DNA of 55,871 bases from a virus. Its lineage: Duplodnaviria > Caudoviricetes. The number at the start of each line of letters is the position of its first letter. The first letter of the stretch is position 1. Below are positions 5,168-54,006 of the stretch, one piece after another. The stretch covers positions 1 to 55,871 of the IMG/VR virus record IMGVR_UViG_3300044950_000794; one strand, given 5' to 3'. The notes below the pieces were generated by a model. That model was not told where the DNA came from. It worked only from the letters and a program-made list of their open reading frames with translations, and did not search any database. The position numbers were made by a program, and so were the translations under genes.

Positions 5168-8100
5168 CTATGGTGATACTATGTCGCAGAAGAAGGTTGC
5201 GCGGCTGTTTATTTGGTCGATGCTCACACTGAGGTTCTTGTAACCCCCAGCCGAATACAGTGCGTTAAACGTCGCGTCGTCGTTAGGCGGGGCCGACGCG
5301 ACGACGGACACCCTACGCCATCGAAACCACGACGCGGGGGTGATCGTTGTGACCTCTGCCCCGTTCTTGAACAGTCGCGCGCTCAGTAGCGTGGTTTGCC
5401 CCATACCCACCTTAAACGAGGTACCATTGGAGGACTCTATACCAACGGTGAAGTTAAATCCAGTCTCGAAATAGATAGACCACGCCAAGGGGGTGCCCGT
5501 TAGGATATAGCTGTTTCCATCCGTAGTATTTCGGTAAACCGCGTTCTGTGCCCAAGCGGCCCCAAGCCCCCCCTGTGTCGGCGGCGTGGAGAACGCTCCA
5601 ACATAGTTAATTGACGGCACAAGACTGTTGGCGGCCACCTGTGATATAGCAATCTGTGAGCCATTCACCCATACGTAGGCCCCTGCCCCCACTTCACCGT
5701 TGGCCCCGAATACAAGGTCACCGGAGGCGTCCAACACGTTCAAGCCTCGTCCGTCCACGTCAGTGTTGACGACCGCGTGAGTCGTGGCCTGCCCGACGTA
5801 TACCAGTCCCGACCTAACCAATGGCGTGCCATGTGCCACCGTACGCGCCCAGAAATGCCGTGTCTCCCCGGTGCCAAGTCCTACCATAGTGAACCTCTCG
5901 GACGGAGTAGCACCGGCCAGAACCGCCGTCGCCTCCACACCGGTGGCACTTGAGTAAATCTCAACCTCCTTGAACGACGGTAGGTCCGAGGGGTTTACCC
6001 ACTTCACTTGGATTTGCCGTATACCCCCGACAACGACGGGGGATGACACGTTAGGCATGATATAGTCCGCAGGCCTTCCCGTGACGTCAAACACAAGGAG
6101 GCTTGTGTCATTTGATTTGCGACCAGTTCCATCGTATGCACGTAAGACTGCATGATATCTTGCCCCCGCTACTAGGTCTGGGAGCGTCACGGTGTTATTC
6201 ATCCGCAGATCAATGGTCCTCCACTCCTGCCCACGTATGCGGTAGGACAACTCATACCCGCGCACGCGCGGGTCAGTGTGGCGTGTGAATGCAAGCTGCA
6301 CACTCGGGCTGTCAGCCGCACCCGGTGCGGGCGCTACGAACTCAGCCACCCGGAAGTTCTGTGGGACGGGTAAGGCCCCGGTGGGCATAAGCGGCTCCGG
6401 GAAGGATGGTAACTCGTAGCCACCCTCAATGATGCCATACTTGGAAGGATCATGCTGTAGTGCTGTTATCTCATACTGGTCCTTGCCCACTTCTCGGTTT
6501 GCCAGCACACGCCATAGCGTGTCGGGGCCGCTGATCTTACGCAAGGCCCAGATAGTTTCCAAGGGATTGGCGGTGAGTTCGGGCAGTGCAACACTAACGT
6601 CTATCACTGCCGTGCTGCCGCTGGCAGACGTGACGGTCCTATAGTGCAGCGCGCGTTGCTTGTCGTGGATCACCAGTTCGTATGCTTGCCCCGGATCAAG
6701 GTAGACAGACCGGTCTAGTGTCACGGTGTTGGTGGTGTACCCCGACAAGCGCCCGCCCATGGAGACGCCCATGGTCGATGGGTCCATGACGCGCACTACA
6801 CTCCCCGGCCCTATGTCGAAGTGATCGGGACCGGCCACGTACGTGATAACCTCACTCTCCATCCTTTCGGTGTATAGAAGCCACCGCCCGGCCCGAACCG
6901 CTTGCGCCCGGCTGGTACACCCGAAAGCGATAATGTCGGTAGGCCGCAGCCCGTTTTTGAAGATGCCCTCACGGTCGTCAACCGTTACCACATCGCGTTT
7001 GTAGAAATTGGCAGGGTTGTTATAGGTCACGTTCACCCTGTTGTGCACGGTCAAAAGGCTTGCCCCTTTGTAGGAGAACTCACCGTCAACGGTGTTGGCG
7101 CGTGTCACGGTAACCTCCGGGTCGCGGGGCATGTCAGCCGTGAACATAACGCTGCCTAGGGCATAATAAATCATGCCCCTGAACACACTGGACATAGCGT
7201 TCAGCAGTTGGTAGGCCTCAAAGCGCGTGCTAATATAGGCGTTGAATGAGAAGCGCGGCTCAAGGCTTCCGTCCCCATTATCCACCAGAGGGGCGCAATA
7301 CTGGCTGATGGCATATAGCGTAGTGTCGTCAAGGTAGGTTTCCGGTATGTACCGGCCAAGGCCCCACCGCTCATTTCGCATCACCGCTCGCAAGCACCAC
7401 GCGGGGCAGTCAGTCCATTCCTCTTTGAACGCACCGTTCCATATGCCGGTGTACACCCGTGTAATAGGGTCAAAGTTGACAGGCACCGGGCAAATCAGAC
7501 CCTCGACTAGCACAGCGCGCGACGGGATATTGTTGCCGAACTGCTCCGCGCTAGCGGATATCGCAAGAAGGGCGGTGTGTGGGTACACGAACTTTTGGTC
7601 AATGATCTGGGTGTATGAGAAGAAGTGCACTTCATTGGCGAGTTCAGTGCTGTCAACGGCATCGTCAGTCTCGCGCACAACACGAACGTTCCATGGTCCA
7701 GCGCCCGTCAGGTTGAACCGGTGGGCTAGGAACGTGGGGCTGGTACACTTCTGGTTTGACAGGACGAAGGGGCTACCGGATATGTCGATCCAGCTTCCGC
7801 CAGATGGCTGGTACTGTACGCGGTAGCTTACGTCGGTGACCAGCATATCGCCTTTTTCTTTGTTCAGCTTCCATAGCTGGGGTATCTTTATCTGCACCCG
7901 CACTGCGTCGGTAAGCTGCTCATTGATAGTCCGAACCACGGGTGTGGCCTTGACAACGTGTGTGTCAACCACAATCTCTGCCTCCTGAGAGGAAAAGCCG
8001 GGGATGGCGCTTTGGTCTGGCAGGCCTAGACGTGTGTGGTAGGTCACGCCCTTGAAGTTAAGAGCGCCCCCTTCGTCATACAACGGTACTTCGTTCAGAT

Positions 8101-8286: not shown

Positions 8287-9414
8287 CTATCTGCCACCTA
8301 CATCGGTAGTTGTGAAGTTGCCGTTGCCGTCGTTGGTGTTGGTATACCCTACGTTTGCGCCGGGGGCGTCTGAGTAGTTTCCGAGAGTGGCTGTCACCAC
8401 GGTCTCGGAAACCACTGGCCCGTTGGTAAGTGTGAGGTTCAGCTTTGAGGTGTAACCTCTTTTCGCAGAGAACCCCGCATTCCATATCACCTGCACAGTG
8501 TCCGTCTGCGCGGATGGGTTGACGTAGAACGTAACCGCGCCCGCACCCGCTATGGTCTTAACAGTTCCAGAGAACGTGGGGAATGTGCCTATAGCCACCT
8601 TGGCCGCACCGTCCAACGAGGCGTGAGTTACGCTGAACCCCGTTGGCAGGGACAGAAGATCAAGCATGTCCACCACGTTACCCCGCCCACCGGCTAGGGG
8701 CGTATCAGGGTCTCGCGGGGTAGTGATCACTGGGTAGACCCTGTAGTAGGGCAGGTGCACGGCGGGGTTACTCACCTCGTTGTCGAGAGGGTCTCCCAGT
8801 AACATTTCAACGTCAAGGCTTGCGCTTACGACAACTGTACCCACCATCATCTTACCAAACACCAGCCCAAGCACGCCACCTTGCTCGGTGACGTTTACGG
8901 GGCCATTGAATACATAGGATTGCTTTTCTTCCTCTGCTTTGTTGGCTTTCATAGAGGGCGTTAAGAGAATGCCAACACCCTGTAGGATAAGACCGGCCCC
9001 CATGGTAGCTAGAGTGCCGTAGGTAGACCCAGTTAGCCCGAACAGGCCCGGAAGCACCGTGGCCAAAGTCCCGCCAGAAAGAAAGAAAGCTGCGCCTATG
9101 ATAAGACCCCCGATAATGGCCATCAACAGGCCCTTGCCCTTCTTGGCACCCACGGCTTCAGGCATGATATGCAGTTCTTCGCCGGTGAACCCGAGCGTCA
9201 ACCTGTCAGCTGGTAGGTCTCTCTCCCGCTTGCCACGAACAGCCGTCACGAAGTAACGGCCCTCCTTGAAGCGCTTGATGAAGCCGGGGAAGTTCACCTC
9301 AATCAGGCGTAGCGCCTCAGCGGGCGTCTTGAACACCAACTCAAGGGTGTCCCCGACACCCTCTGCTAGATGACCGAACAGCCGAACTGTCCTAAGCGTT
9401 GCCGGTGCGCTCAT
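8287..9414 (-). CDS. Tail assembly protein (lambda gpI-like) with C-terminal extension
   Basis: LRTVRLFGHL..., TPAEALRLI, hydrophobic Gly-rich segment, SYVFNGPVN.TEQG..L.LVFG.M.VG..VVSA; order L-K-I-J. Confidence 0.88.
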   Translation of the reverse strand: MSAPATLRTVRLFGHLAEGVGDTLELVFKTPAEALRLIEVNFPGFIKRFKEGRYFVTAVRGKRERDLPADRLTLGFTGEELHIMPEAVGAKKGKGLLMAIIGGLIIGAAFFLSGGTLATVLPGLFGLTGSTYGTLATMGAGLILQGVGILLTPSMKANKAEEEKQSYVFNGPVNVTEQGGVLGLVFGKMMVGTVVVSASLDVEMLLGDPLDNEVSNPAVHLPYYRVYPVITTPRDPDTPLAGGRGNVVDMLDLLSLPTGFSVTHASLDGAAKVAIGTFPTFSGTVKTIAGAGAVTFYVNPSAQTDTVQVIWNAGFSAKRGYTSKLNLTLTNGPVVSETVVTATLGNYSDAPGANVGYTNTNDGNGNFTTTDVGGR

Positions 9415-16305: not shown

Positions 16306-16491
16306 TCAGTCCTGATCCTTGCAAGGGGTTTCTGTTGGTAGTCGCTTGTGCGCTATATGTGGTTCAACGGTGCCACCACCTTTGAGGACCATAAGCGCAA
16401 GGGCGCTCACCTTGTTAAGGCGAACGCCCACTATACGCCCGGAACGATTGAGCACAACGTATGTCTTGATTTCAACCCCACCGGTACGCAT
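16306..16491 (-). CDS. Small hypothetical protein between tail tube and chaperone
   Basis: ATG 3 nt after the tail tube stop; the ORF fills the gap exactly (MRTGGVEIKTYVV...). Confidence 0.45.
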   Translation of the reverse strand: MRTGGVEIKTYVVLNRSGRIVGVRLNKVSALALMVLKGGGTVEPHIAHKRLPTETPCKDQD

Positions 16492-16493
16492 GG

Positions 16494-17738
16494 TTAGCAG
16501 GCGTAAATCAGCAGTTCGTCGTTTCCGCCGATGCCACACAGAGACATTGCGTTGTCATTCTTGCGCAGACCATCGGTCTCCGCGTATGGCATCGCGGTCA
16601 GTTGGCCGTTGCCCAAGAACATCACGCAGTTGCCCGGCGTGGTGCCCAGATATCCAGACAGTTGCAGAAGCGTTGACTTGTCCAGCATATCGTAAATGTT
16701 CATGCTAGCCAGAGGGACACTGTCCATGTTGAAAGACGCGGTGGGCGCTCTTCCGGTGATTATTGAACCGTCGTTGGCCCCAAGGGCGTTGGCACAGAGC
16801 CGTGACACAACACTGTTCGCCATATCGAAGCCGAAGGTGGTTGGGCAGGCCACCACGTCTCGGTCCACCGCTAGGTCAGCGAGTTCAACCATGGGGGGCA
16901 ACGGGTAGTTCCCATACGAATAGGTCGTGGGGAACGTCTGATCGTCAGGCAAGACCCAGTCCCCGCTCATGCTGAAATTGAACACAGCCAATTCACCAGC
17001 CGTCGCGGCCATAGACATGGTGCCACGCACCCCGTTCATACGATGGCGCTTGTTGCCGAAGTACCCATGCAGGTACCCGCTTTCCGCCGTGACCGGGTCA
17101 CTGGTGGGCGAGTACAAGTGGCCCGGTGGTACGAACCAGAAGAAGTACCGGTCACCCACCACCAGCGGGGCCGTGAACGTGAGCGTCATGGTCGCGCCCT
17201 GTACCGCCGTGGCCAACGCAACAGCCGTCGTCGCCGTCACGGCTGTCGCCGCTACAGCCGCCGCGCCGTTTGGCAGATCGTGCGCGTCAATCCGCACCTG
17301 TGTGGTTGAGGTGACTGTCACGCATACCAGTCGTGGAAGGGTGCCCGTGAAGGCGGCTGCGTTCCCGGACAGGGTCACACCGGTTTTCACGTTCTGTGGA
17401 TGCGCACGGGCAAGCGCGAGGCCGGGAGTGGCGAACTGCGTCTGAGCGAAACCGCACATACGCGCCAACGGACCCCAAGCGGGTGGGGTAGCGCCGGTAG
17501 TGTTACCGGGTCCATTCACCTCATGCGTGAAGCTGAACGCCTGCATCTTGCGACCAGCGCGACCGGCCACCGGCGAGAAGTTTGCGCGCTGTACGTTGCG
17601 TTCCAGCCGTCCGACGTTCGGGGTTGGCTGCAAGTCGCCAACGTCGAACACGTTGGTCATCAGGTTGGGCGTACCGCCCGCACGGAACACGCCTTCCATG
17701 CCCCCTGCTAGCAGAACCCGATCAAATACGTTGGTCAT
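16494..17738 (-). CDS. Major tail tube protein
   Basis: 414 aa; TPPAWGPL...CGF and Y.P.S....S..L..Y.....H...G.RGT motifs; AGGAG RBS; position before the chaperones. Confidence 0.85.
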   Translation of the reverse strand: MTNVFDRVLLAGGMEGVFRAGGTPNLMTNVFDVGDLQPTPNVGRLERNVQRANFSPVAGRAGRKMQAFSFTHEVNGPGNTTGATPPAWGPLARMCGFAQTQFATPGLALARAHPQNVKTGVTLSGNAAAFTGTLPRLVCVTVTSTTQVRIDAHDLPNGAAAVAATAVTATTAVALATAVQGATMTLTFTAPLVVGDRYFFWFVPPGHLYSPTSDPVTAESGYLHGYFGNKRHRMNGVRGTMSMAATAGELAVFNFSMSGDWVLPDDQTFPTTYSYGNYPLPPMVELADLAVDRDVVACPTTFGFDMANSVVSRLCANALGANDGSIITGRAPTASFNMDSVPLASMNIYDMLDKSTLLQLSGYLGTTPGNCVMFLGNGQLTAMPYAETDGLRKNDNAMSLCGIGGNDELLIYAC

Positions 17739-25458: not shown

Positions 25459-25913
25459 TGCACGCTCTCCGGGTTCACCACCACGCCGCGACCATCGCGG
25501 ACCATGGGGCAGTTCTCTAAAATCTTGCGCAGTGCCACTGCGTTGAGGTGGTCATAGCCCGCGCGGGCGCACACCTTGGCCTTCCAACCGATGACGCTCT
25601 CCGCACTGGCATACACCACAACGTCGCCAACGCTCATTGATTTGGCCTGTAGGCTGATCTTCGTGGCCGTGCCTCTGCCCGGCATGTAGTTGGCCAGCGG
25701 GAAGACCTGATTGAGTTCGTCGGCCTCAACGGTCCACATATGCTTCATGATGCCATGGTGCGCTGCCGCGTAGTAGTCGTGGGCGGTAACGTCGAAGCCC
25801 CCGGTGATCTTGGCATACAGCCGGAACTCAGGCTTCGCTTCCCAGCCGCTCGCGTTCAACTCGTGGACCTGCACGTCGGTCAGGTGGGGCTGGTAAATGT
25901 GGTATGTGGTCAT
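25455..25913 (-). CDS. Hypothetical protein, YodL-like
   Basis: Y.IYQ N-terminus and SMSVGDVV motif; AAAGGAGA RBS; first gene after the promoter at 25942. Confidence 0.6.
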   Translation of the reverse strand: MTTYHIYQPHLTDVQVHELNASGWEAKPEFRLYAKITGGFDVTAHDYYAAAHHGIMKHMWTVEADELNQVFPLANYMPGRGTATKISLQAKSMSVGDVVVYASAESVIGWKAKVCARAGYDHLNAVALRKILENCPMVRDGRGVVVNPESVQ

Positions 25914-25978
25914 AACGTGGTCTCCTTTGCTGCATCCTGAATGTAAACCTTACGGGTTACACGGTCAAGGGGCCATCG

Positions 25979-26013
25979 CAAAAAAGTTCACCCCGCACGG
26001 GGCGGGGTGTTTT
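25979..26013 (-). terminator. Intrinsic terminator
   Basis: CACCCCGC/GCGGGGTG stem followed by AACTTTTTT on the minus strand; the plus strand also has a short T run. Confidence 0.7.
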
Positions 26014-26037
26014 GGTGACGCAGAGCGGGCGTATGGA

Positions 26038-26334
26038 TCAGTTGTGGTAGACCGTGATCGGCACGGCGCGGGTGCTGTAGACCCAGACTACGGGGGTAGC
26101 CACACCGGGGAAAGCCGTGGCCACGTTGAGGCTCAGGTGCCCACGGTCCTTTGACCACTCAAGCCCGATGATGCTAGCGGCTGCAAGTACATCAGTCGGG
26201 GACGCGCCCGACGTAGCGTGCAGGAACAGCACCCCGTCTTTCTTGGGCTGCATGGTCAAGGCAGTGGCCCCGGCCTGCGTCAGGGCTACCCATGCCCCGT
26301 TGATAGTGGTGATTGTGGTTGCTCGTGCGGCCAT
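26038..26334 (-). CDS. Small beta-rich protein in a stand-alone transcription unit
   Basis: GGAGGA RBS, upstream TTGACA promoter candidate, downstream terminator. Confidence 0.7.
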   Translation of the reverse strand: MAARATTITTINGAWVALTQAGATALTMQPKKDGVLFLHATSGASPTDVLAAASIIGLEWSKDRGHLSLNVATAFPGVATPVVWVYSTRAVPITVYHN

Positions 26335-26363
26335 GGTGTAAGTCCTCCATAATGGTCAGGCGA

Positions 26364-26394
26364 GACTATGTCGCATTGCGCCGGTATATGTCAA
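26364..26394 (-). promoter_or_regulatory. Sigma70-type promoter candidate without the operator
   Basis: TTGACA-N18-CATAGT on the minus strand upstream of 26334. Confidence 0.45.
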
Positions 26395-26441
26395 CCTCTC
26401 GGGCTGTAGCATAAGACCTGCACCGGGTGCGGCTCACACGC

Positions 26442-26506
26442 CTAGCACGACGACCCATGAAGCGCCTTGAGGGAGGAGGTTTCAAAACATCATAGGTCGC
26501 CGCTAG
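26442..26506 (-). ncRNA. Candidate sRNA hairpin with CCUCCUCCC loop (cuckoo/CcsR-like)
   Basis: Intergenic; 5-, 12- and 8-bp stems that pair fully only on the minus strand (G-U pairs); loop AACCUCCUCCC; TTGACA about 45 nt upstream. Confidence 0.6.
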
Positions 26507-26575
26507 CTGGCCAGCGTTCTGAATGGGTAACAGGGCCTATACGGCCCTGTCAAGCGCCATGACGGCGTGGTGCGC

Positions 26576-27021
26576 TTACTTCGTAGGTGCCGACCCGGAA
26601 GGGCCGCCCCGCGCTGTCTTGACTACGTGAACCACGGCCTTCAACTCAGTGATGGTCAGACGATCAACATCGAACCACCGTGCCTCCTTCCAGTCCGCGT
26701 CGTCTTTCAAGATGGGCTGCACGCAGGCTTGTGAGCACCCTGTCAAGTAATCAGCCAGCCCCGTGACCACACCGGTAAACCCAGTGACGTTGTCGGTGAC
26801 CTTGTCGCCAAGTTCGATCCCGTTTCGCGTTTCGGTCATAGTTCAGCGTCCTTCCGCAGTTCGGTCACGGCCACGGAGCACCCGTCGTGCACGTGGCACT
26901 CAAACACCTCTCCCGGCTTGACGGTGTGCACCGGTCGCATTTCAGCCCCGGTTGCGGGGTGCGTAAAGTCAACACGCAGCGGCCATCCCGCATGTGCGTC
27001 AACGGTAACTTTACTGGTCAT
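26576..27021 (-). CDS. Two small hypothetical genes (26576-26839, 26836-27021)
   Basis: The first has the recurrent phage motif LGDKV.D.VTGF.GVVTG...YL.GC...WFD..RL; the second has an AAGGAGA RBS at 27021. Confidence 0.7.
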
Positions 27022-27126
27022 TAGTCTTTCTCCTTGTGGCTGGTTGGGTACCCGTACTCTCCGGGCTGTCGCGCCTAACGCTGACGTTTGCGTGGGGTAT
27101 ATCTCCACGTGACTATGCCGTTGCAG

Positions 27127-27564
27127 TCACCCCACCTTCCGCCCCGCATCCTGTGTCAGGGCTGGCCACGGCTTAGCCGCGACGTGCCCCGGTATCTCGT
27201 TGTCTGGCATGGTATCAGGCAGGCCGTGCAGCAAGCGCAGTCGTTGCGCCTCGTATGAGAACGCCTGACGCAGCGCGTGGAGCGTGGTCTTATCCACACG
27301 GGCGTCTGCTATGGCGTGTTGAAGGGCAAGGGCTGAGCGCAGCGCTTTCACGCTGTCTGCGGCAAGCGATACGTGCGCTGTTTTCTTGAGGTCGCGTAGC
27401 CTGTCTGATATAGCCTTGAGGTCTTCCCGCTCACCGGCCTCAATACGCCTGATTACCTCGCGGCGGTTTGACGGTGGGCCGCTGAAGCCCAGTGCCGAGG
27501 CCATGTCCGCTTGGGACAGTCCTAACAGCTTCCGCAGTTGTGCTACCTCGTACCCTACGCTCAT
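27127..27564 (-). CDS. XRE-family helix-turn-helix protein
   Basis: LRKLLGLSQADMA.ALG......IRRIE.G.R pattern. Confidence 0.8.
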   Translation of the reverse strand: MSVGYEVAQLRKLLGLSQADMASALGFSGPPSNRREVIRRIEAGEREDLKAISDRLRDLKKTAHVSLAADSVKALRSALALQHAIADARVDKTTLHALRQAFSYEAQRLRLLHGLPDTMPDNEIPGHVAAKPWPALTQDAGRKVG

Positions 27565-28460: not shown

Positions 28461-28521
28461 GGCGTTATCTCCTTTGCTACCCCCGGAATGTAAACCTATC
28501 GGGTTACAGCGTCAAGTGTGA

Positions 28522-53249: not shown

Positions 53250-54006
53250 GTGGGCGCTCCCTCTTCCTGATTGTGATCACGGGCTTGGTTGGCCGCGTGC
53301 GCTTGCGTATGGTTACCTCTGCGGCTTTACGCTTGCGGTCGCAGGCATTGGCATGAGGTACGAACTGCCGGTACCCCATGGTATAAGACACGTCTATCTT
53401 CGACCCGCTCAGGCTGTCGCCGTGCGTGACCCTGCCCGCTATGCCGCTCACGGATAGCTGCACATAGGCCATTCTGTACGCGCGCTCGGATAAGTCCGTC
53501 GCATCAACGAACATCACGGTGGATGGGTCGTAACCGGATTCACGCAGGTTTGACGCCAATGCGAGTACCATGGCCCCGGCCCCGACGGCTGGTTCGGCCA
53601 TGGTGAAGTAACCGTTGCTTTTAATGAGGGTGGGCACGTCGGTGCACTGCATAGCGGCCATCAGCTTACATACCTCAAAGGGCGTGAAGAACTGCCCTTG
53701 CTCGGCACGCAGCACACCTAGTTCACCCGCGAGCATCCCTAGATAATCCATGTTCGGGGAGTTCTCGAAGCACTCGGCTAGCAGGGCCGGGAACACTTTG
53801 CGAATGTCGTCTGCGGGCCACCGACTAACCTCCCGCATGTACCGCCCCTCTAGGGCATTGCGTCGGGCTTCGTCTGCTTTCGGGTCCAACTTGGCCAGTG
53901 CGCAGAAGGACAGTTCCAGAAAAGCATCAAACGCCTCAACTTGGTTGAAGCGTCTGGGCAACTGTCCATATAGTTTCAAGGCTTTGGCTAGGGCCGGGTG
54001 GGCCAT
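53242..54006 (-). CDS. N6-adenine methyltransferase-like (HsdM-type) protein, apparently lacking the catalytic NPP(Y/F)
   Basis: GQFFTP.EV..LM, EP.VG.G.M (motif I), D......MAYVQL and HGDSL motifs; no NPPY/F visible. Confidence 0.8.
   Translation of the reverse strand: MAHPALAKALKLYGQLPRRFNQVEAFDAFLELSFCALAKLDPKADEARRNALEGRYMREVSRWPADDIRKVFPALLAECFENSPNMDYLGMLAGELGVLRAEQGQFFTPFEVCKLMAAMQCTDVPTLIKSNGYFTMAEPAVGAGAMVLALASNLRESGYDPSTVMFVDATDLSERAYRMAYVQLSVSGIAGRVTHGDSLSGSKIDVSYTMGYRQFVPHANACDRKRKAAEVTIRKRTRPTKPVITIRKRERPRA

Follow-up and report, generated by a model that had tools for sequence, protein, structure and literature searches.

A short gap between two small genes of a lake-water phage encodes, on its minus strand, a hairpin whose apical loop presents the exact anti-Shine-Dalgarno motif CCUCCUCCC. 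We tentatively interpret this hairpin as an operon-embedded anti-Shine-Dalgarno (SD) RNA module that resembles the cuckoo RNAs and that probably acts after processing, an interpretation to which we give somewhat less than an even chance. The stretch of DNA that we analyzed, hereafter the window, is the whole of IMG/VR record IMGVR_UViG_3300044950_000794, which is 55,871 bp in length, is classed as linear, and is about 56% complete. The public runs that hold this record identify the source of the phage as lake water, and the phage is an orphan siphovirus.

Results

Structure of the hairpin

The 87-aa and 98-aa open reading frames (ORFs) are separated by 241 nt (26335-26575) inside a one-directional operon, and the hairpin lies within this gap (Table 1). 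Read along the minus strand from 26506 to 26442, its stem consists of CUAGC/GCUAG (5 bp), a GU bulge, GGCGACCUAUGA/UCAUGGGUCGUC (12 bp), a CU bulge, and UGUUUUGA/UCAAGGCG (8 bp). Five of the 25 pairs are G-U or U-G pairs, and every non-Watson-Crick pair is a G-U pair on the coding strand. On the plus strand, these five positions are A-C mismatches. The minimum free energy of the minus-strand fold is -29.6 kcal/mol with a z-score of -5.60, and none of 200 shuffled sequences folds as well. The plus-strand fold has an energy of -20.0 kcal/mol with a z-score of -2.42, which is equalled by 2 of 200 shuffles. Folds calculated with DNA parameters are weak (-11.5 and -9.1 kcal/mol, with z-scores of -2.7 and -1.6, for the two strands), and RNA parameters fit far better. 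The mean probability that the loop is unpaired is 0.997 in sequence contexts of 65, 241, 501, and 802 nt, and no alternative pairing with the loop is predicted in contexts of up to 802 nt. In longer contexts the hairpin gains extra basal pairs. There is no second copy of it in the window. The fold, its strand specificity, its exposed loop, and its exact motif are thus directly seen, and we consider it most likely that a real structure forms at the RNA level on the coding strand.

These results agree with a sequence-only reading of the same DNA, which had described a gene-free gap of about 240 nt, a three-stem minus-strand fold around the loop (which we reproduced exactly), five G-U pairs that are valid on that strand alone, a TTGACA about 45 nt upstream (the measured distance is 42 nt), and a plus-strand GGGAGGAGG that is not followed by a start codon. 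We find no ATG, GTG, or TTG within 17 nt of GGGAGGAGG, and a plus-strand gene behind it was rejected for that reason. A 39-aa minus-strand ORF that starts within the hairpin (26485-26366) was likewise rejected, as it has a TTG start, no SD sequence, and an Arg-rich product.

Table 1. Positions of the hairpin and of neighboring features in the window
Feature	Position	Strand	Remarks
Core hairpin	26442..26506	-	25 bp (5+12+8), two 2-nt bulges on 3' side, 11-nt apical loop
Apical loop AACCUCCUCCC	26471..26481	-	exact CCUCCUCCC at 26479-26471, sole copy in window
Extended hairpin in longer context	26434..26516	-	extra basal pairs, -40.4 kcal/mol, z -4.47
Upstream 87-aa gene	26576..26839	-	phrog_16275; 72.6% identical to Rhodobacter phage RcKemmy gp59
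TTGACA, possible -35	26548..26553	-	42 nt before hairpin; 18-nt spacer, then TACCCA 26529-26524
Small perfect hairpin/palindrome ACAGGGCC-GTATA-GGCCCTGT	26530..26550	-	8 bp, 5-nt loop; between TTGACA and TACCCA
Second hairpin	26409..26439	-	2 nt past first; 3-nt loop, without CCUCCUCCC, without U-run
Sigma-70-like promoter TTGACA-18-CATAGT	26365..26394	-	for 98-aa gene, downstream of hairpin; 10/12 matches; sole promoter called in gap
Shine-Dalgarno GGAGGA of 98-aa gene	26343..26348	-	6-nt complementarity to loop
Downstream 98-aa gene	26038..26334	-	no family match; one homologue, 76% identity, known only from a 1291-bp contig
Canonical intrinsic terminator	25989..26009	-	8-bp GC stem and U-run; ends operon past 98-aa gene
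Family promoter sites (first base)	19527, 23319, 24826, 25961, 28508, 30909, 33317, 35609, 36674, 39332, 43966, 43987, 46258, 54053	-	

Comparison with chance expectation

The motif by itself is unremarkable, because 0.46 copies of the exact 9-mer are expected in the window and one is found among 111,742 strand positions. At least one exact copy is present in 36 of 100 shuffles, and 19 matches at one mismatch compare with 16 expected. In this 60% GC genome, the hairpin does not stand out by raw folding energy calculated in 70-nt windows. Ranked by RNALfold z-score, the hairpin element (26516-26434) is 11th among the non-overlapping minus-strand structures, most of which lie inside genes. Five minus-strand structures with lower z-scores (-5.9 to -5.5) are located at 8363-8421, 53907-53967, 16524-16597, 16392-16440, and 2130-2213, which according to crude ORF calls are within coding regions or across gene boundaries. 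What is unusual is a combination of features, namely a position that is intergenic and on the sense strand, non-Watson-Crick pairs that are all G-U, and a motif that is centered in the apical loop. We put the probability of such a combination arising by chance at 1e-3 to 1e-4 per window, which is a rough estimate and not a computed test. Since a very large scan underlies the choice of this hairpin, a number of such coincidences are to be expected by chance.

Phage, operon, and host signals

The long ORFs of the window are all on the minus strand, its GC content is about 60%, and its recognizable genes encode a portal, a tape-measure protein, and tail-tip protein J. The portal is 40-42% identical to the portals of Rhizobium phage L338C and Aeromonas phage HJ05. 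Three phage proteins find their best matches in phages of Rhodobacter, Rhizobium, Agrobacterium, and other Proteobacteria; the first three of these hosts fall within the orders in which cuckoo RNAs are found, and we counted this in favor of the anti-SD reading. The closest phage proteins are those of alphaproteobacterial phages (72% for Rhodobacter and 41% for Rhizobium), which does not fix the host itself. The matches of tail protein J are scattered over many proteobacterial phages and therefore indicate no single host, and no phage match was found for a 375-aa protein. Neither tRNA nor tmRNA genes were found in the window.

The operon unit runs from about 28508 through ORFs of 162, 104, 145 (HTH), 90, and 87 aa, across the gap, and through the 98-aa ORF to the terminator. 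An HTH_3-like protein is encoded two genes upstream in the hairpin's operon. Given that the nearest copies of the phage's promoter family are at 28508-28489 and 25961-25942, the hairpin lies inside the unit that begins near 28508. Positions 22000-46000 form a block of about 25 kb that consists mostly of small ORFs without known function, each group of which has its own promoter copy. On one side of this block is the portal/head region (46-55 kb) and on the other the tape-measure/tail region (5-16 kb), with everything on one strand.

Promoters, terminators, and repeated elements

The promoter family of the window, cTTGACn-TGTAACCC-N4-GGTTTACA, occurs at 14 places, 12 of which have TTGAC or TTGCA directly upstream. 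Its promoter-operator palindrome gives 27 matches on both strands, compared with 0.37 expected. The palindrome encloses the -10 element (TACAnn) and is often succeeded by a GCAGCAA leader and an SD sequence of the AAGGAG type. This set is probably a phage-specific regulated promoter family.

A promoter scan did not call the TTGACA at 26553-26548 and called no promoter upstream of the hairpin in the gap. The arrangement TTGACA-18-TACCCA resembles the phage's TACC-type -10 variants. Two family promoters use a TACC-type -10, and a weak promoter at 26553-26524 is therefore possible. TGTTACCCATT (26532-26522) resembles the left half of the promoter-operator motif. The start of the gap (26522-26553) comprises gcgcTTGACA, a 15-nt perfect mini-hairpin insert (GGGCCGTATAGGCCC), and TGTTACCCATT, without a right operator half. 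This resembles an interrupted promoter, which suggests that the hairpin segment was inserted into, or replaced, an older promoter.

The hairpin is not followed by a U-tailed terminator, since a scan of 25800-27200 gives only the terminator at 26009-25989. It does not combine a GC-rich stem with a U-run as an intrinsic terminator would, and the scan does not give it the promoter and intrinsic terminator of its own that would mark an independent small-RNA gene. Within the second hairpin (26439-26409), the stretch 26432-26419 differs by one mismatch from CCGCACCCGGTGCG, a palindrome that is repeated across the window.

A 13-nt palindrome, CGCACC[C/G]GGTGCG, has 20 exact sites in both orientations, which are found inside genes and in gaps or 5' leaders (for example at 6317, 11906, 17761, 23272, 27625, 30928, 33271, and 49434). 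At up to 2 mismatches, there are 43 matches compared with 1.86 expected. It might serve as a binding site on DNA for a dimeric protein or form a small hairpin in RNA, and a copy with one mismatch comes immediately after the long hairpin.

Comparison with cuckoo, CcsR, and ar14 RNAs

Two published reports define the cuckoo/CcsR/ar14 RNAs by the presence of CCUCCUCCC in their hairpin loops and describe them as anti-SD regulators (PMC4615179, PMC8034643). According to the first of these, members of the cuckoo family have 2-4 adjacent hairpins, each with CCUCCUCCC in its loop, with loops of 9-27 nt, helices no shorter than 6 bp, interruptions no longer than 6 nt, and linkers of up to 10 nt; the stems are widely variable and covariance models do poorly (PMC4615179). 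The sequence-only reading had named the loop-exposed motif as the hallmark of these RNAs and had described them as usually multi-hairpin, and both statements agree with these accounts. [quoted passage not shown]

The phage hairpin shares with cuckoo RNAs the exact CCUCCUCCC, unpaired in the apical loop (26479-26471), and its 11-nt loop, 25 bp, and two 2-nt bulges fall within the geometry of a single cuckoo module. It also lies just 3' of a small ORF, as CcsR does in the ccaF1 3' UTR. However, it is one module rather than 2-4, which we counted against the anti-SD reading. Its 25-bp stem is AU-richer than the GC-rich stems of 7-16 bp in 66 cuckoo modules, it has no U-tailed terminal hairpin, and its carrier is a phage that looks lytic whereas cuckoo RNAs reside on bacterial chromosomes. 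A Pfam search found no DUF1127 among the 10 neighboring ORFs, so that the CIN1 neighborhood is not seen around the hairpin, and the record is a virus contig. The loop of the hairpin is like that of a cuckoo module, its stem is not, and the definition of the family excludes the hairpin from membership. A more distant likeness is to Staphylococcus RNAIII, which has UCCC loops according to PMC4615179. The common principle is a C-rich apical loop that seeds pairing with the SD sequence, but the organisms are unrelated, RNAIII is multi-hairpin, and the motif is different.

A comparison with Rfam models of cuckoo/CcsR/ar14 RNAs, which had been proposed as a check on the sequence-only reading, did not support membership. 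The ar14 model (RF02344, threshold 58.8 bits) does not match the hairpin at E <= 10, nor does any other model. Across the whole window, there are 0 Rfam matches at gathering thresholds, and within 1 kb around the hairpin the only match at E <= 10 is a chance Zeta-pan match inside the 87-aa gene. This negative result is weak evidence, because, of 12 loci with clear multi-hairpin CCUCCUCCC cuckoo RNAs, only two (L020 and L025) reach the ar14 threshold. The other ten of these loci are L035, L042, L046, L051, L064, L065, L079, L088, L093, and L105, and no other family matched. The coverage of the cuckoo family in Rfam is therefore poor.

Cuckoo RNAs in other viral contigs

A scan of IMG/VR for pairs of CCUCCUCCC motifs yielded at least 120 loci, of which we examined 120 (L013-L132). 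In 30 of these 120 loci, there are at least 2 adjacent motif-bearing hairpins, as in typical cuckoo RNAs of 2-3 hairpins (for example L079:6247-6324, L065:7061-7142, L035:3340-3417, and L046:6312-6385), and we counted this in favor of the anti-SD reading. Some of the cuckoo-bearing viral contigs may include host flanks. The viral loci provided 66 distinct modules with stems of 7-16 bp and loops of 9-18 nt. The commonest loop size is 11 nt, which is also that of the phage hairpin. From these 66 modules we built a covariance model, R1, in which 66.8% of cells are paired compared with 43.1% in shuffles. The phage hairpin ranks first in the window with this model, but its score is only 15.0 bits, with an E value of 0.15 by rough calibration, and R1 finds no second module near it. 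The multi-hairpin IMG/VR RNAs share the loop motif and are likewise carried by phages or prophages, in some cases close to a gene for an HTH regulator. They differ from the phage hairpin in that they consist of 2-3 short hairpins, often with a U-run after the last, and the phage hairpin has neither.

With regard to the neighborhoods of these viral cuckoo RNAs, a CI-like repressor gene lies beside the RNA in 2 of 5 loci with Pfam-annotated flanks. In L065, an HTH_3 + Peptidase_S24 (CI-like) gene and the RNA share a strand, with the RNA about 160 nt downstream; in L079, a Peptidase_S24 gene is encoded on the opposite strand at a distance of about 340 nt from the RNA. In L046 the RNA is flanked by ribonucleotide reductase and SNF2 helicase genes, and the flanking ORFs of L042 and L050 have no Pfam match. 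PHROG matches were obtained for 3 of 10 neighboring ORFs and include ParB-like proteins and DNA methyltransferases. Our literature search found no report of phage-borne cuckoo RNAs, and the word 'phage' has 0 occurrences in the text of PMC4615179; supplementary tables may list prophage-located members.

Relatives of the gap and RNA coverage

The gap has no blastn match among 50,697 phage records. Searches for related IMG/VR loci with the 87-aa, 98-aa, and 321-aa proteins returned none, and a search of IMG/VR with the portal protein returned one locus that, at 38% identity, is too distant. JGI metagenomes searched with an alignment of the 98-aa protein and its one homologue likewise gave none. 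Thus, no relative with the gap was found in cultured phages, IMG/VR, JGI metagenomes, or GTDB genomes, and these sources provide no covariation evidence. In Rhodobacter phages RcKemmy and RcOceanus, the next gene directly follows the homologue of the 87-aa gene, with no gap or hairpin. Among five cultured phages, four with related portals plus RcKemmy, 0 of 4 motif sites are in a hairpin loop. A 21-nt pattern of the loop and upper stem matches 0 stretches in viral contigs, and a 19-nt pattern is matched twice in genome contigs and six times in metagenome contigs. These 8 stretches are chance matches, since 0 of 8 share the flanks or the fold.

DNA contigs from public runs (X4, X5, and X6), which are short and of low depth, include one that spans 26465-26615, and the gap shows no listed differences. 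In a freshwater metatranscriptome run (X9), there are contigs that match 25536-25920 and 26740-26970 without differences. They cover sequence on both sides of the gap and not the gap itself, and strand and level are not readable from contigs. These matches indicate that the phage, or one nearly identical to it, was present in an RNA library.

Candidate targets

We compared the loop with the 25 nt upstream of each of 78 crudely predicted starts. The longest complementary match is at most 5 nt at 72 of the 78 starts, in line with the earlier claim that the phage's own sites pair less well with the loop. Matches of 6 nt occur at 3 starts, including that of the 98-aa gene, matches of 7 nt occur at 2 (34836 and 45116), and there is one match of 8 nt. 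The latter, which is the best in the window, is GAGGAGGU at the start of the tape-measure gene (15496), with a calculated energy of -15.2 kcal/mol. Poor pairing at the phage's own predicted sites would fit the anti-SD reading, and it is no proof of function.

Discussion

The same hairpin might instead be an mRNA processing or stability element that is cut by RNase III or that blocks 3'-5' exonucleases. It would then either stabilize the upstream message (the 162-aa to 87-aa genes) or separate it from the 98-aa gene, for which a promoter of its own is called, and the loop sequence would be incidental. Substrates of RNase III have about 20 bp or more of near-continuous duplex, or about two helical turns. 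The 25 near-continuous base pairs of the hairpin, with their small bulges, reach that length, although cleavage itself is only predicted, and the stem far exceeds that of any of the 66 cuckoo modules. The hairpin is also located at an operon-internal boundary, just upstream of an internal promoter, and the scan calls no promoter or terminator for it. RNase III processing hairpins are found in the polycistronic mRNAs of the T7 early region, and like them the phage hairpin is a long, imperfect, intergenic duplex with small bulges in a one-directional phage operon. The T7 hairpins form a series, however, whereas this is the sole long intergenic hairpin of its kind in the window, the other gaps having short GC hairpins or promoter palindromes, and there is therefore no T7-like series of sites. 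Moreover, its loop carries a known regulatory motif, and a processing element leaves unexplained why an exact 9-nt motif is centered in an 11-nt loop. On this evidence, we consider a role confined to processing to be possible but rather doubtful. That the hairpin has no present function, being either a product of chance or a relic of an insertion that broke an older promoter, with a coincidental loop motif, seems to us unlikely, and slightly more so than a processing role. The expectation of 0.46 copies of the motif per window, the presence of about ten hairpins with such a z-score per strand, the selection of this finding from a very large scan, and the start of the gap, where gcgcTTGACA, the 15-nt insert, and TGTTACCCATT read as an interrupted family promoter, are all consistent with it. 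Against these stand the apparent improbability of the combination, as roughly estimated above, and the retention of a 241-nt gap in a densely packed phage genome.

An action on transcription, in which the hairpin and the second hairpin would jointly act as a put-like antitermination RNA or as an attenuator within an early operon, could account for the spacing of 2 nt between the two hairpins, for the HTH_3-like protein encoded two genes upstream, and for the canonical terminator about 400 nt downstream. However, Rfam gives no match to a family of this kind, a U-run for attenuation is lacking, and no alternative pairing of the loop is predicted, so that we regard such an action as very improbable. 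Least credible of all is a DNA-level element, either a protein-bound inverted repeat or a single-stranded DNA hairpin for replication or packaging. The hairpin is an imperfect palindrome in a non-coding gap of a window that is rich in palindromic DNA motifs, but the other strand has five A-C mismatches, the DNA folds are weak, and the window has no second copy.

We return to the reading that we prefer, that of an operon-embedded anti-SD module. The sequence-only reading had proposed a single-hairpin viral mimic that would block GGAGG sites. The strand-specific fold, the exposed loop, and the motif uphold the part of that proposal that concerns structure, while the single module, the 25-bp stem, the lack of an Rfam match, and the lack of a called promoter or terminator weigh against the likeness to cuckoo RNAs as a whole. 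Everything beyond the fold we infer from a single orphan sequence. The module would be transcribed within the minus-strand operon from the promoter near 28508, possibly with extra transcription from a weak promoter of its own at 26553-26524. As no canonical terminator follows the hairpin, the active form, a discrete transcript, would probably be cut out of the operon transcript, much as RNase E releases CcsR from the ccaF1 3' UTR; alternatively, RNase III might release it by cutting the 25-bp stem. Its tip would keep the cuckoo-type anti-SD CCUCCUCCC permanently single-stranded. Its most likely action would be to pair, through the loop, with G-rich ribosome-binding sites (GGAGG or GAGGAGG) and so to block binding of the 30S subunit and affect translation. 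The targets may be host mRNAs, or the few phage mRNAs that have G-rich sites.

A partial precedent for such an arrangement is the c4 antisense RNA of phages P1 and P7, which is embedded in an operon, is processed, and has exposed loops that mask a ribosome-binding site. The likeness lies in an operon-embedded phage RNA with SD-directed loops. In the phage hairpin, processing is only proposed, and the loops of c4 match a specific target over longer stretches than the 6 nt at the 98-aa site. The two have no sequence or structure relationship.

A more far-reaching proposal joins these elements to the survey of viral contigs. A virulent-looking alphaproteobacterial phage would carry a one-hairpin 'mini-cuckoo' that is excised by host RNases and whose tip copies the CcsR/cuckoo stress RNAs of the host; this RNA would silence G-rich host sites or delay the phage's own tape-measure and late genes while sparing AAGGAG-type sites, and alphaproteobacterial phages and prophages would repeatedly carry anti-SD RNAs of the cuckoo type, sometimes beside CI-type repressors. 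Taken as a whole, this proposal is speculative and is probably not correct in all of its parts.

If the hairpin serves only as a processing site, it is ordinary. If the RNA is made and is active, the phage would have its own copy of the recognition motif of a host small RNA, pared down to a single hairpin within an operon. This would be a compact means by which a virus could bias translation to its own messages, and it would offer a simple test system with one loop and one motif. The multi-hairpin cuckoo RNAs in viral contigs may matter more than the phage hairpin itself, as their presence, together with the CI-like repressor genes next to them in 2 of 5 loci, suggests that phages move and use these regulators.
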